DNA of 4,423 bases, taken from IMG/VR virus record IMGVR_UViG_2693429642_000019. One strand, given 5' to 3'. Made by a program: the position numbers and the translations under genes. The notes beneath the pieces were generated by a model. That model was not told the DNA's origin, made no database searches, and saw only the letters and a list, made by a program, of their open reading frames with translations. The DNA comes from a virus. Taxonomy: Monodnaviria > Loebvirae > Hofneiviricota > Faserviricetes > Tubulavirales. Below are positions 1 through 4,423 of the stretch, in pieces (positions within the stretch are counted from its first letter, which is position 1; the number at the start of each line of letters is the position of its first letter).

Positions 1-88
1 ATATCTCTCGTTGCTTATACCAATACTTTTCCTGCTCATTTTTTGTTCTCCTGTTCTTTTGGCTTAGTTTAATACAACATAGCAAAAT

Positions 89-163
89 TGCATTTGTGCA
101 CAATTGCACTTGTGCATCTGGTTTTTTTGTGTATTATTTTTGCAAGTTTGCACAATTGCACGC
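89..163. repeat. Array of TGCA tetranucleotides at 8-bp phasing, in two clusters (89-116 and 141-160), including a 13-bp direct repeat TGCACAATTGCAC at 98-110 and 150-162
   Basis: Read directly: TGCA at 89, 97, 105, 113 and again at 141, 149, 157, each 8 bp apart. The spacers are TTTG/CAAT/CTTG and AGTT/CAAT. The two clusters flank a -10-like TATTAT and sit immediately upstream of the rep start. Candidate operator or origin iterons. Confidence 0.55.
110..137 (+). promoter_or_regulatory. Putative sigma70-type promoter for the replication gene (-35 TTGTGC at 110-115, 16-bp spacer, -10 TATTAT at 132-137)
   Basis: Hexamers read by eye with 4/6 and 5/6 matches to consensus and 16-bp spacing. Located between the two TGCA clusters and about 50 bp upstream of the likely rep start. 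No experimental support. Confidence 0.3.
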
Positions 164-186
164 AGGTAAAGCATTTGGGGGGATTA

Positions 187-2187
187 GTGACTGAATCAGC
201 CATCCTTACAGCGTATAACGCCATCGACGCGGCATCCGTTGCCCTTGGTCGTCCCTGCCTGACGCTGCCCGAACGCGAGCATTTTCGGACTGAGCGCGAT
301 GTTGCCACCCGCAACCTTGCCACGCTTTCCCGCCAGTATCGTGATGAGGTCGGGACCTTATCTTCACAGCTCGCATTGCCACGTAACACGCAGGTTGACC
401 GTGTGATTTACGGAATTAACTGCACGGATTTATCTCTCGCTGACAGGGGCAGGGCTGCCGGACTGGTATCACAGTTTGGCTCGTTTTCGTTCACCGTGGC
501 GCATGCTTTCTGCCGTCTGGTTTACCAGCTCGGTGTGAAAAATGCGCTGATGGCGCTTGAGTCCGCGCACCGTTTTGCTTTCTTCAATCAGGACGGAGAC
601 CCTTATGAATTCTCGCTTTTCTGCACTGATGAGCAGATTGCTGAGGTGGCTGATTCGGTTGTTCGTGACTGCCTTGTTTCCCGGGCCATTTATAGTGATG
701 TACCAGAGCATCACCTTCTCAATGTGATGGCCTATTTTCGGGCCATCTCCGGCTTTGATTTCGCACCCGTTTATGCCACTTATCATGAGCGTTACGGCGA
801 TGAGGGATTGCTTAAGCGTCTGACTGATTTGGCTTTTGTCACCCGTTTCCTGCGGGTTGTCCGTGACCAGCGGGTTAATGAGGTCTGTCGCATGCTCGGC
901 ATACTGAACCGCAACGCGCCTTATATTTCTGACTGGCATCGTGACCTGTTTGCTGTCCGCAGTAAACGCGTGAAAAAGTATCTCCGGTCCTCCGGTGTCT
1001 TTGATGCGTTTAATGAGCTGGTCTGTACGCTGGAAGATGCGCATAACGCCTCTGTTTCGAATCCGAAAAACCGGATTGCTGAACTCTGCGTTCGTGGAAA
1101 GGCCGTCTGTGAACTGTCCGAAGATATGGGGCTGTCCGGCTACTTCATCGTGCTCACCACGCCGTCACGTTTTCACCCGACGACCAGTTTTAAGGTTGCC
1201 GGAAAATGGCATTCTCGTCCGAATAAAAAATGGTGGGAAGCAGGTTGCCCGACCGTTAAGGATTCGCACGCCTGGCTGAATACCGTCTGGCGTCGGGTCT
1301 GCCGCAGACTGGATAAAGCCGGTATTCAGATACCCGGTCTGCGCACGGTCGAGCCTCATGCTGACGGTACAACGCACTGGAATTTCCTGATTTACTGCAA
1401 TCCCCATGAGAGCGCAACGGTGCTCGCTATTTTCCGTGAAGAGGCCATGCGCGATGAGCCGGATGAAAAGGGGGCGAAAGAGCACCGCATTCGTATTGAG
1501 GCTATTGACCCTGAAAAGGGTGATGGTTTCCGTTACATCGTGAAGTACATCACCAAAATGGCGGGTGATGTCAGTGCGGATGGTATTACCGCCCTGAATG
1601 ACCGTTATTCTGCCCGTTCATTCTGTGATGCCGTCAGCCGTGCCGCCTGCTGGCAGAAAGCAACGCGCCTTCGCCTGTTCCAGTTCTTTGGCGTTCCGTC
1701 CGTCACGGCTTACCGCCAGATGCGTACTTTTCGTTCACCGCTTGAAGCACATCATATCAATATGCAGCAGTTCACGCCGCAGCAGGTCGCCGAACTGGAG
1801 GCCATCCGCATGGCCTGTGATGCAGGCGATTTCCGGACCTATATCCTGCTGAACGGCGGTTTCTTCTGTTCTGAACGTCTGCTTCGTCCTTTTTACGTTC
1901 AGCCGCAGGAAGGTGGTAAACCCCGTTTTAACCGTTACGGTGAACCCTGCGCACCGGTGATTTCCGGTTTCATGTTTGGCCCTGTTCCGGTCATAACCCG
2001 TTTTATGGGCTGTGTTGTCCGCCGTATGACCCCCGCAGAAAAAATCCGCGCAGAGGAAGTCAGAAGCGGCAGCAGCTATGAATCTGTGTTTATTTCGTCG
2101 GCTTCACGACACCGCACGACGCGCTCCCGCGCGGCGGGTGGGGGCGGCGAAGCCGACCCTTGGACTTGTGACAATAACTGTCCCTGA
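187..2187 (+). CDS. Rolling-circle replication initiator (Rep, gII-equivalent), two-tyrosine HUH-superfamily type; start uncertain (GTG 187 preferred, TTG 175 or TTG 88 possible)
   Basis: Long uninterrupted ORF in the frame of 88..2187. Encodes R-Y-I-V-K-Y-I-T-K at 1531-1557, with two Tyr three residues apart as in the phiX174 gpA / P2 gpA class of initiators. A His-containing segment [19 protein letters not shown] lies at 1354-1410, about 55 aa upstream. G-rich Shine-Dalgarno GGGGGGA (176-182) precedes GTG 187. The region 88-170 holds repeats and a promoter-like element, so the TTG 88 start is unlikely. First gene of an Ff-like gene order. Confidence 0.8.
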
Positions 2188-2217
2188 CTGAATTTTTAAC
2201 ATTGAGGAGTCTGATTT

Positions 2218-2975: not shown

Positions 2976-3218
2976 ATGAAACTGAAAACCCTTGTTTTAT
3001 CTGGTCTGGCAACGACTGCTTCTGTCGCTGCGCTTCCGGCTTCTGCTGCGGTTAGTGTTCCGTCTTTTATTACTGCTGATACTGTTAAAGAAATTGGTGA
3101 CGCGCTCACCAGTGTGATTGGCATTGCAGGTACGGCGGCATTTGCCGTTCTTGGTGTTTCACTCGCTGCCCGTCTGGGTATCGGTATCATTAAAGGCTTC
3201 CTTTCCCGCGCAACCTGA
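2976..3218 (+). CDS. Major coat protein precursor (gVIII-like), 80 aa
   Basis: SD AGAGGA (2965-2970) lies 5 nt before ATG 2976. Signal peptide [24 protein letters not shown] with an AxA cleavage site. The predicted mature protein has the Ff coat layout: N-terminal part with acidic residues (D, E), hydrophobic core [18 protein letters not shown], and a basic C-terminus [16 protein letters not shown] strong terminator follows. Confidence 0.85.
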
Positions 3219-3233
3219 TAGTTATTTAACGAC

Positions 3234-3256
3234 AGCGCCCTCCGGGGCGCTTTTTT
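3234..3256 (+). terminator. Rho-independent terminator after the coat gene
   Basis: Perfect 7-bp GC-rich stem AGCGCCC (3234-3240) / GGGCGCT (3245-3251) with loop TCCG, followed by a T-run 3251-3256. It begins 16 bp after the coat gene stop. Confidence 0.75.
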
Positions 3257-3278
3257 AATCATACCAGGAGTGTTTTGT

Positions 3279-4423
3279 TTGATTCACTTTATTATTCCGC
3301 TTCTGTTTTTGTTCTTTTCCTCGTTTTCTTTCGCTGAAGAGAAAGAAAATCCGGATGCACTTGTTCAGTGTGCAGGCCATTCATCCTGCAGGACAGATTA
3401 TTCGGACGCGGGGACGTCGATTAAATTAGCCAGGGCGGCCGGTCATCTTTTCTGTGGTTCGGGCAGTTATGACGCATGTTCCGGAATAATTCATTATTGT
3501 GGTGTGCCACTTTCAACGCCTGTTAATGCACCTTCGACTGTCGGGTCTTTTGTCCGTGCCCGGTGGTCAGCATATAAAGTCTGGGATTCAGACAAGCAAA
3601 AGTGGACAGCCTGCACCCTTGCTTTTCAGGGTGGTGAGGGGGATTTGACACCTGAATATAATAAGCCGCCAACTGACGAGATTTGTCTTTCTCGTCCGGT
3701 TCTTGATGGTATGACTTTTTCTGATGTTTATAAAGGTGATGACGGGACCCGTTATGTTAATGTGCAGGGGTGTATTTATGAGGCAACCGGTAATCCTCTT
3801 ATTTGTAATCCCGATGATGATACAGTTTGTACTGCCGACTGGAAACCAGTTGCTGTAGATCCTGCATTCTCCGATGGTAAGGAGGATGGCGGTAGCTCAG
3901 GTGGTGGCAGTTCCGGTGGTGGTAACCCAGGCGGCGGCAGTTCCGGTGGTGGTTCAGGTTCTGGCTCCGGTGGTTCATCCGGTAGCGGTGGCTCCGGCTC
4001 GGGTTCCGGCGGCTCATCCGGCAGTGGTGGTTCAGGTTCTGGCTCCGGTGGTTCATCCGGTAGCGGTGGCTCCGGCTCGGGTTCCGGCGGCTCATCCGGC
4101 AGTGGTGGTTCAGGTTCTGGCTCCGGTGGTTCATCCGGTAGCGGTGGCTCCGGCTCGGGCTCCGGCGGTTCATCCGGTAGCGGTAGTTCAGGTTCAGGAT
4201 CCGGTGGCTCATCCGGCGATGACAATGGCTGGCTTGATGGTATTTTGGGCTGGTTAAAAACAATATGGGTGTCAGTGAATGATTTAAATAATGCTTTTTC
4301 TGTTTCTCAGGCTGATATGAATAATGCATTAAATTCACTGGACAATGGTATTAAAGATATTAGTCAGAATATAGCTTCTTCTTTGCCTGATGGGGATTTC
4401 CCTTTAGGGGAGCTTTCGCATTA
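3279..4423 (+). CDS. pIII-like adsorption / minor coat protein, 3'-truncated by the window end (at least 381 codons); TTG start
   Basis: Open frame with no stop from 3222 to the window end, translated by hand. SD AGGAG (3266-3270) lies 8 nt before TTG 3279. Signal peptide MIHFIIPLLFLFFSSFSFA, then a Cys-rich N-terminal region (10 Cys), a roughly 109-aa Gly/Ser linker (3891-4217), and the beginning of a C-terminal domain (DDNGWLDGILGWLKTIW...). Not in the ORF track because of the non-ATG start and missing stop. Confidence 0.8.
   Translation, partial: MIHFIIPLLFLFFSSFSFAEEKENPDALVQCAGHSSCRTDYSDAGTSIKLARAAGHLFCGSGSYDACSGIIHYCGVPLSTPVNAPSTVGSFVRARWSAYKVWDSDKQKWTACTLAFQGGEGDLTPEYNKPPTDEICLSRPVLDGMTFSDVYKGDDGTRYVNVQGCIYEATGNPLICNPDDDTVCTADWKPVAVDPAFSDGKEDGGSSGGGSSGGGNPGGGSSGGGSGSGSGGSSGSGGSGSGSGGSSGSGGSGSGSGGSSGSGGSGSGSGGSSGSGGSGSGSGGSSGSGGSGSGSGGSSGSGSSGSGSGGSSGDDNGWLDGILGWLKTIWVSVNDLNNAFSVSQADMNNALNSLDNGIKDISQNIASSLPDGDFPLGELSH
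3951..4184. repeat. Three tandem copies of a 78-bp unit (two 39-bp half-units) encoding the repeated peptide GSGSGSGGSSGSG inside the pIII-like gene
   Basis: Unit GGTTCAGGTTCTGGCTCCGGTGGTTCATCCGGTAGCGGTGGCTCCGGCTCGGGTTCCGGCGGCTCATCCGGCAGTGGT starts at 3951, 4029 and 4107. Copies 1 and 2 are identical; copy 3 has a few synonymous differences. Confidence 0.85.

Follow-up and report, generated by a model that had tools for sequence, protein, structure and literature searches.

The stretch of DNA considered here is IMG/VR virus record IMGVR_UViG_2693429642_000019, which we analysed over its whole length of 4,423 nucleotides (nt) and refer to as the window. It carries six consecutive plus-strand genes in the order found in filamentous phages (inoviruses), from a replication initiator (Rep) to an adsorption protein (g3p). 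Together with 13 codons of a minus-strand gene at the left edge, they cover 94% of the 4423 bases. The features of the window are as follows.

1..39, minus strand: 5' end (first 13 codons, MSRKSIGISNERY) of a divergent 62-amino-acid (aa) gene in the rstR position, a putative repressor, its function read from position only
40..186, no strand: divergent regulatory region with candidate operators and promoters, holding two 22-nt direct repeats, each internally palindromic, at 88-109 (TTGCATTTGTGCACAATTGCAC) and 140-161 (TTGCAAGTTTGCACAATTGCAC)
187..2187, plus strand: Rep, 666 aa, predicted from family matches to be a rolling-circle initiator of the P2 gpA / CTXphi RstA type (HUH-class two-tyrosine nickase)
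2218..2643, plus strand: 141-aa protein in the gV/RstB position, predicted OB-fold protein binding single-stranded DNA (ssDNA), preceded by a GAGGAG ribosome-binding site
2648..2788, plus strand: 46-aa protein with a single transmembrane segment in the gVII position, a putative virion-tip protein, its role read from position
2781..2951, plus strand: 56-aa protein with a single transmembrane segment in the gIX position, its role likewise read from position
2976..3218, plus strand: 80-aa putative major coat protein precursor, g8p analogue by its sequence features
3234..3260, plus strand: predicted intrinsic terminator from a terminator scan, AGCGCCC-TCCG-GGGCGCT (stem-loop 3234-3251) then TTTTTT
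3279..4423, plus strand: g3p adsorption protein, first 381 codons from a TTG start, running past the window end (451 aa in the nearest relative)
3336..3653, plus strand: Cys-rich N-terminal domain of g3p, about aa 20-125, presumed primary-receptor domain preceding the TolA-binding domain
3672..3863, plus strand: TolA-binding N1-type domain of g3p, aa 132-195, from sequence matches to PDB entries
3888..4217, plus strand: Gly/Ser linker of g3p, 110 aa, made of a 78-nt unit repeated 3.5 times with 95% matches

This gene layout is real, far beyond chance. It is 94% coding, with almost all of the coding on one strand; that strand is T-rich (30% T versus 20% A); the exact Rep protein occurs on at least 24 public contigs from different assemblies; and the ratios of nonsynonymous to synonymous polymorphism (pN/pS) between the window and a 96%-identical relative are 0.09 for Rep, 0.28 for the 141-aa gene and 0.10 for the 56-aa gene, so that substitutions are mostly synonymous. 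The 46-aa gene does not differ at all in that relative. Long open reading frames (ORFs) within 3776-4338 (minus strand 3776-4225 and 3799-4338; plus strand 3874-4257) are artefacts of the Gly/Ser repeats. An earlier reading of the letters of the window, the first-pass annotation, had recognised the order Rep, gV-position protein, two small membrane proteins, coat protein, terminator and g3p, and every element lies where it had been placed. The divergent start of the minus-strand gene at 1-39 and the two 22-nt direct repeats within 40-186 had been overlooked.

Among complete Escherichia coli genomes, the best match is strain 100416 (GCF_052907965.1; human stool, The Gambia), which is 99.5% identical to the window and whose sole length difference is one 78-nt linker unit. 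In this strain the window belongs to an 8739-bp unit present as two tandem copies with the same proteins, lying between hipA and the ydeR-side fimbrial genes at dif. Morphogenesis genes had been predicted to lie downstream of the window, and they follow in the unit as expected.

After g3p: g6p-like protein, 119 aa (phrog_1944, 1.6e-4)
2.6 kb downstream: Zot/g1p ATPase, 403 aa (Pfam Zot, 2.5e-9; phrog_1675 'protein I of M13', 1.2e-49)
After Zot: secretin/g4p, 402 aa (Pfam Secretin, 9e-25; phrog_1012 'protein IV of M13', 5.4e-115)

The Zot-type ATPase that marks an inovirus is thus found in the 99.5%-identical unit, its gene lying outside the window. We consider it about 90% probable that the window is the left half, comprising the replication and virion structural modules, of an 8.7-kb E. 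coli inovirus integrated at dif. What the analysis shows is which genes are present and in what order, their homologies at the level of family and domain, the place in the chromosome, the junction sequences, a predicted fold and selective constraint. All biochemical activities, the production of virions and the parts played by the regulator and the two small proteins we infer. Both the observation and the interpretation of the first-pass annotation, which had suggested an episomal or integrated element, are thereby supported, the tandem pair in strain 100416 being integrated.

The Rep protein was thought on first reading to be of another type than M13 gpII, and family searches bear this out. 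Its GTG start follows a GGGGGG Shine-Dalgarno sequence (the mechanical ORF opens at TTG 88), and it matches Pfam PF05840 Phage_GPA (8.2e-49) and phrog_91 'nicking at origin of replication' (1.2e-128). It scores 17.5 bits against PF23343 REP_ORF2-G2P, for which the cutoff is 27.8, and is thus not of the II/X type of the Ff group; BLASTP against IKe gpII gave no match. Among reference phages, the longest matches are to the Reps of fs2 and VFJ (29-30% identity, 85% coverage, E 1e-48 to 1e-51), while the Reps of the Vaf1 and Dolos inoviruses score slightly higher over less of the protein. CTXphi RstA is 31% identical over 63% of Rep (E 1e-51), with the catalytic motifs in common. P2-like gpA proteins, at 26-29% identity, come behind the inovirus Reps in a tblastn search of reference phages. 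The motifs PSRFH, EPHxDGxxHx[H/N] and YxxKYxxK line up with those of fs2 Rep and RstA. The two-tyrosine motif reads YIVKYITK, its tyrosines being Y450 and Y454, and we take YxxKYxxK to be the active-site pattern of nickases of the phiX174 gpA / P2 gpA type. In the HUH-type motif at window positions 1357-1383 (Rep aa 391-399), the second His is replaced by Asn, giving HWN; this position is His in fs2 Rep (HNH) and RstA (HHH), and Asn is invariant in 22 of 22 enterobacterial relatives, down to 40% identity.

The assignment of the roughly 140-aa protein to gV fared less evenly, since it finds no support in sequence, while position and a predicted OB fold favour it. The 141-aa protein has no significant match in Pfam, NCBIfam or the PDB, and hhalign found no similarity of its family profile to RstB (probability 0.05) or of the protein to M13 gVp, although G5P matches recur at a weak level. 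The family is very narrow, with 17 clusters in 5.8 billion proteins and 9 in 1.84 billion representatives by profile search. A first AlphaFold model was useless (predicted local distance difference test, pLDDT, 37), and a more diverse alignment to which the profile-search sequences had been added rescued it. The rescued model (pLDDT 77; predicted template modelling score 0.69) has the order b1-b2-b3-helix-b4-b5, and the predicted fold is an OB fold closest to those of ssDNA-binding proteins. Position and predicted fold together lend moderate support to a gV-like role.

The two small genes that follow are packed closely. The 46-aa gene is an annotated coding sequence in relatives and its product carries a single hydrophobic segment. 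The ATG of the 56-aa gene overlaps the 46-aa stop codon in ATGACTGA and has no Shine-Dalgarno sequence of its own, suggesting that its translation is coupled to that of the 46-aa gene; the 56-aa protein is 36% identical to a 52-aa ORF in the same position of a sibling prophage, that of Sx181. By inspection and hydropathy, the 80-aa protein has a signal peptide of about 24 aa ending ASA and followed by AV, an acidic stretch, a hydrophobic core, a basic C-terminus and an isoelectric point of 10, and so shows the signal peptide, single transmembrane helix and basic C-terminus of a coat protein. It is 29% identical to a 91-aa ORF at the same position of Sx181, and it has a weak match to phrog_17608 (0.0012) and none in Pfam. 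The terminator behind it, with a 7-bp stem containing 6 G-C pairs at 3234-3251, tops the list of the scan, and its placement matches the stem-loop annotated after gene VIII in IKe.

The adsorption protein has a signal peptide and 10 Cys within its first 200 aa, and it matches Pfam PF05357 Phage_Coat_A (6.6e-9) and PHROG 'attachment protein' families. Its C-terminal anchor lies beyond the window and is present in the strain 100416 locus (hereafter L001). Residues 132-222 match PDB 1tol, the fd g3p N1-TolA fusion (7.8e-13), and 2g3p (7.9e-12); the N1 region also matches 4eo1, a 70-aa chain deposited as 'Attachment protein G3P' (1.4e-12), and is 34% identical to IKe g3p aa 121-224. The Cys-rich domain in front of it matches no family or solved structure. 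The copy number of the 78-nt linker unit (window 3946-4216) differs between near-identical phages, the window having one more than strain 100416 (4423 versus 4345 nt). Relative to a variant of the phage that bears an IS110-family gene, described below, the coat gene and the N-terminal half of g3p (window 2976-3878) diverge far more than Rep. Against that variant (L016 8787-9689) the coat gene has a pN/pS of 0.68 with 28 differences in 243 nt, and g3p is 82% identical overall, its differences concentrating in the receptor and TolA domains. The divergence of g3p and the coat suggests diversifying change, or exchange, of the parts that would contact the host.

Attachment-site features, which the first-pass annotation had proposed to look for, are present, the 8739-bp unit being bounded by hybrid dif sites. 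The junctions in strain 100416 are:

attL, left junction: GGTGCGCATAATGT joined to GACACGCGTTATGTTGAAAAGG, a hybrid dif
inter-copy junction: AGTGCGCATAATGT joined to GACACGCG..., a hybrid dif
attR, right junction: AGTGCGCATAATGTATATTATGTTAAAT, E. coli dif with one mismatch

This pattern is as expected if the XerC side is exchanged between dif and a phage attP. No canonical dif with up to 3 mismatches was found in the first locus examined; its left and middle junctions are hybrid, and the site that matches dif almost perfectly is situated a little past its end. A second dif-like site in inverted orientation lies just inside the left junction. As ssDNA, the 115-nt attP region folds at -37.6 kcal/mol (z = -8.6; 0 of 200 shuffles as good) into an XerC-arm duplex, a 6-nt bulge and an XerD-arm duplex capped by a G+C-rich hairpin. 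This folded structure and the junction sequences agree with the published description of YpfPhi and the CTXphi model (PMC4266046), and they are compatible with a single-strand integration route of the CTXphi type, which we suggest for this phage by analogy.

An attP cassette of about 95 bp also occurs in the dif prophages of UTI89, NCTC9104 and Sx181, with mainly the bulge differing. The UTI89 (O18:K1:H7) prophage serves here as the stand-in for CUS-1/YpfPhi; it was placed in CUS-1 by serotype and by the statement on genes II and V in the UPphi paper, the published CUS-1 sequence itself lying outside the comparison. The NCTC9104 prophage, found with an IKe DNA query, is the UPphi-like prophage compared, and has a 105-aa DNA-binding protein and a 350-aa II/X Rep, to which the Rep of UTI89 is related at 80% nucleotide identity. 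The cassette is nearly unchanged across three otherwise unrelated E. coli inovirus lineages, namely that of the window, the UPphi-like one and the UTI89 CUS-1 type. It consists of an XerC arm, a variable bulge of 4-7 nt, GTTATGTTGAAAAGG, a G+C hairpin and an inverted partner site, and lies at L001 11505-11600 and 20243-20340, L012 8002, L013 1908 and L014 6539. At dif in strain E300010 (NZ_CM128601.1 2437218-2448637), the matching stretch encodes a 'replication endonuclease' as well as a 'replication initiation factor domain' protein, which suggests a mixed array of two different inoviruses.

Strain 100416 also has an insert of about 700 bp between gI and gIV (L001 18236-18943), made of two tandem units of about 345 bp with a motif of about 57 nt at their bounds and holding a 74-aa minus-strand ORF; relatives have a single copy of the motif. 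Hundreds of E. coli records hold copies about 90% identical to this insert, with as many as 30 in one genome; another inovirus prophage, which is located near yhbO and also has traX, is among the places where they occur. We considered the motif as a hairpin origin and dropped the idea, its fold being no better than that of shuffled sequence (z = -0.34). Rfam searches found nothing in the phage unit.

At the left edge of the window, the 62-aa regulator gene is annotated as a coding sequence in the 99.5%-identical locus (L001 11851-12039). Its product is 53% identical to that of the same-position gene of Sx181 and 40% to that of the UPphi-like prophage, and it has no match in Pfam, NCBIfam or the PDB. 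A ribbon-helix-helix fold, suspected from the sequence pattern, could not be supported and is not claimed. Between the attP hairpin and this gene, L001 has an unannotated 56-aa hydrophobic ORF (11604-11774, minus strand). In most relatives the match to the window ends at about 174-193, indicating that the regulator and region 40-186 form a replaceable cassette. Among copies with an identical Rep, some have the 62-aa regulator and others a 153-aa HTH_3 protein (Xre/cI-like, minus strand; L021-L024 6337-6798). The regulator/operator region therefore appears to behave as an exchangeable cassette, reminiscent of the rstR alleles of CTXphi.

A third arrangement was found in 28 complete genomes, where a 321-aa IS110-family gene (Pfam DEDD_Tnp_IS110, 2.1e-20; Transposase_20, 4.2e-16) takes the place of the cassette, with 3 nt between its end and Rep. 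Across complete E. coli genomes, the IS110-family gene is essentially confined to this pre-Rep arrangement. The IS110 version is about 9.5 kb long, its core is 96% identical to the window, and it corresponds to window 190-4423 plus flanks (L016 4843-14364, NZ_CM128606.1; L017 about 11003-20552, NZ_CM128604.1). Strains E100341 and E200139 are among its carriers. Two insertions of the IS110 version could be mapped against empty sites in K-12, with exact ends at two independent sites.

Empty K-12 site 5 bp upstream of hcxB: ...GGTTAACTCCTG TTTATGTT...
Empty K-12 site inside murP: ...CTTTATTCCTG TTTACCTCG...
Occupied site, left junction: ...TCCTG followed by GTGTGTTTG...
Occupied site, right junction: ...AGTTGCTG followed by TTTA...

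The target common to both sites is TCCTGTTTA, TCCTG^TTTA; the donor junction reads AGTTGCTGGTGTGTTTG and the targets TTCCTGTTTAC and CTCCTGTTTAT. CTG flanks the element on either side and occurs a single time in the unoccupied site, with no other duplication, which is the signature of site-specific insertion of a circle by an IS110-type enzyme. For an inovirus, the inserted circle can be the replicative form. The 185-nt non-coding left end of the IS110 version holds reverse complements of both recombinant junctions (GTTAAACAGCA and CACCAGGAAGG). These are compatible with the possibility that the left end encodes a bridge or guide RNA; Rfam has no match in it. We lean, with some caution, towards a picture in which the core from Rep to g3p is an E. 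coli chassis with interchangeable left-hand immunity/integration cassettes, the circular replicative form serving as IS110 donor and the left end as guide RNA. The Nf and MDA filamentous prophages of Neisseria have IS110-type transposases that target dRS3 repeats with a CT core (PMC7058167), and a 2026 preprint describes IS110 elements with large cargo and does not mention inoviruses. We found no literature description of IS110 in E. coli inoviruses, or of an inovirus IS110 in the bridge-RNA framework.

The window has no nucleotide match among 50,697 reference phage records (megablast, blastn), and 40 of 5,426 complete E. coli genomes contain a match to it. The contigs with the exact Rep include several other assemblies in which it lies next to hipA. 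In IMG/VR, 16 relatives appear as viral contigs of 4-9.6 kb, and the 90%-identity cluster of Rep comprises 2,063 sequences. Relatives of Rep that share 40-65% identity come from E. coli, Salmonella, Xenorhabdus, Providencia and Morganella; in species-representative genomes the Rep query found no relative, and an alignment query found only Salmonella diarizonae and Xenorhabdus (42-46%), with no Yersinia. Most of the carriers listed are isolates from humans, with stool as the origin in those cases for which it was read, and O166:H15 strains are among the carriers. The Sx181 sibling shares the replication module (Rep 91%, 141-aa protein 86% identical) and has a different structural module (25-50%). 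The T-rich coding strand and the stand-alone contigs of 8.7 kb are the only signs, and indirect ones, of packaged circular ssDNA.

These data suggest a life cycle in which the divergent 62-aa regulator would act on the repeat region 40-186 and so control the rightward operon. Rep would nick the plus strand of a circular double-stranded replicative form, leading to rolling-circle replication, and the 141-aa OB-fold protein would coat the displaced plus strands, diverting them to assembly. The 46-aa and 56-aa proteins would form the leading tip of the virion and the 80-aa protein its sheath, while the terminator after the coat gene may lower read-through and so keep the production of g3p, g6p, g1p (Zot) and g4p (secretin) low. 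The trailing end would be capped by g3p, with infection proceeding through its receptor and TolA-binding domains and the Gly/Ser linker leading to the anchor. Integration would occur by XerCD recombination at dif, the attP of two inverted dif-like half-site pairs adopting a bulged ssDNA hairpin as in CTXphi and giving rise to tandem prophages.

Several observations weigh against an active dif-integrated inovirus. In place of the canonical HUH, Rep has HWN, and its nickase activity is assumed. Profile searches, which the first-pass annotation had called for, assign Rep, g3p, Zot and secretin to phage families and give no significant family match for the coat protein, the 46-aa and 56-aa proteins or the regulator, whose roles are accordingly read from position and physico-chemistry. 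A consensus sigma-70 scan of 40-186 passed no promoter site, the plus origin, minus origin and packaging signal were not located, and we found no publication describing the lineage, whose virion, replicative form and ssDNA we infer only. One could therefore ask whether the element is a defective, domesticated remnant that has kept its gene order and makes no particles. The literature holds no experimental record that we could find, RefSeq labels most of the genes hypothetical, and both the non-canonical motif and the tandem-repeat insert of about 700 bp between the Zot and secretin genes of strain 100416 could be taken as decay. Yet both tandem copies keep a complete and intact set of inovirus genes, and Rep and the 141-aa and 56-aa genes are under purifying selection. 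The exact Rep recurs on at least 24 contigs of different assemblies, and close relatives sit at three or more chromosomal sites with different integration modules, which requires recent mobility. Moreover, the invariance of HWN in 22 relatives down to 40% identity marks it as a family trait and not decay. We regard a remnant as improbable.

Two further assignments were rejected on gene content and protein comparison. Membership in the CUS-1/YpfPhi or the UPphi (Lineavirus-like) group is suggested by the same host species, the dif site beside hipA, the tandem arrangement, the attP cassette of about 95 bp, a unit of 8.7 kb equal to the reported size of YpfPhi, and the 40% identity of the 62-aa regulator to the UPphi-like ORF in the same position. 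Both groups, however, have a 350-aa II/X Rep and a 105-aa DNA-binding protein, neither of which aligns with the Rep or the 141-aa protein of the window; in UTI89 only the secretin aligns well (43%), in the UPphi-like prophage Zot (33%) and g3p N1 (43%) do, and megablast of the whole unit retrieves neither group, making such membership very unlikely. The RefSeq name 'replication endonuclease' might instead point to a fragment of a P2-like tailed prophage, since Rep falls in the Pfam family named after P2 gene A and has many tblastn matches in P2-like phages (26-29%). All of its neighbours are nevertheless inoviral (g3p N1, Zot, secretin), the unit is only 8.7 kb long with dif-type bounds, and the best reference-phage matches of Rep are the inoviruses fs2, VFJ, Vaf1, Dolos and CTXphi, so the chance of a P2-like origin is close to nil. 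An inovirus integrated at dif thus remains the reading we adopt.

As a genome feature the element is ordinary, being one more filamentous prophage at dif, catalogued computationally and uncharacterised. It does add a third lineage, after CUS-1/YpfPhi and UPphi, to the E. coli inoviruses that integrate at dif, one that prophage finders and annotators are likely to overlook because it has no reference nucleotide match and RefSeq presents it as a replication endonuclease plus hypothetical proteins. Module exchange is clear: one attP cassette of about 95 bp occurs in three otherwise unrelated lineages, a single replication module is combined with at least two structural modules, and a single core with at least three regulator/integration cassettes. 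The most interesting lead lies outside the window, in the IS110 cassette of the siblings, a natural case of a recombinase of the RNA-guided type as phage integrase, with ends and target mapped.

Comparison with known phages shows where the relationships of the element lie. Against M13, IKe and fs2 overall, the alignable proteins are Zot (31-33%), secretin (26-27%), g3p N1 (34-37%) and, for fs2, Rep (29%). The Vibrio phages fs2 and VFJ (Inoviridae, genus Saetivirus) have an identical gene order genome-wide, from a gpA/RstA-type Rep through gVI, gI and gIV, and genome sizes are alike (8.6-8.7 kb); Zot and secretin of fs2 are 31% and 27% identical to those of the window phage. They differ in host, and the gV-position protein, small proteins, coat and g3p have no detectable similarity. 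CTXphi of V. cholerae (RS2 rstR-rstA-rstB) is alike in having an attP region, a divergent small regulator, an RstA-type Rep and a small protein, and its two inverted dif-like sites also form a bulged hairpin, give tandem prophages and restore a usable dif on the right-hand side (PMC4266046). In contrast to CTXphi, the window phage has a 141-aa protein without RstB similarity, its own secretin, an N1 domain of the Ff/IKe type and no toxin genes.

The likeness to CUS-1/YpfPhi (E. coli O18:K1:H7, Yersinia pestis) lies in dif beside hipA, tandem copies, the 8.7-kb unit, the attP cassette and accessory minus-strand ORFs adjoining attL. An inverted dif-like pair and integration at dif are thus present as in these phages, and being common to several lineages they do not define membership by themselves. 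The UTI89 stand-in differs in its 350-aa II/X Rep and 105-aa DNA-binding protein, and of its proteins BLASTP aligned with the window phage only the secretin (43%) and part of Zot, towards the C-terminus, whereas Rep, the gV-position protein, coat and g3p did not align. In UPphi, according to its description (PMC7307601), genes II and V exceed 85% identity to their YpfPhi counterparts, the remainder being about 70% identical to IKe. UPphi has in common with the window phage tandem dif integration, the attP cassette and a related small ORF at the regulator position; the order of g3p domains, receptor then N1, and a terminator after gene VIII link the window phage to IKe and I2-2 (Lineavirus). 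The UPphi-like prophage has Zot, g3p N1 and the small regulator at 33%, 43% and 40% identity. The Lineavirus phages differ in Rep family and have an unrelated receptor domain, and identities of 26-34% to IKe and 29-43% to the UPphi-like prophage fall well short of the approximately 70% that would mark membership. A side finding on IKe itself is NZ_CP183160.1 (14,488 bp, E. coli strain 572, deposited as a plasmid), which is 90.8% identical to IKe over gIII-gIV with two matching places and probably represents an IKe-like phage in multimeric replicative form.

The first-pass annotation had called the element Ff-like, which holds for its architecture and not for its proteins, these being 25-37% identical to those of M13 or IKe where alignable and mostly not alignable. 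M13, fd and f1 share the order of functions gII-gV-gVII-gIX-gVIII-(terminator)-gIII-gVI-gI-gIV, a homologous g3p N1 domain (PDB 1tol, 2g3p, 1g3p; 37%), Zot/g1p (31%) and secretin/g4p (26%). However, gV, gVII, gIX, gVIII and gVI do not align, so that close structural similarity is lacking, and the Ff phages have a gpII-type Rep and a gV of 87 aa, compared with 141 aa here. The F-pilus N2 domain is absent from the window phage, which integrates, whereas Ff phages do not. The BLASTP comparisons with the UTI89 and UPphi-like prophages, as far as protein sequence can tell, make it a separate lineage outside the Ff, Lineavirus/UPphi and CUS-1/YpfPhi groups, one that appears by analogy to resemble fs2 and CTXphi at its replication and integration end and IKe and Ff at its virion end.

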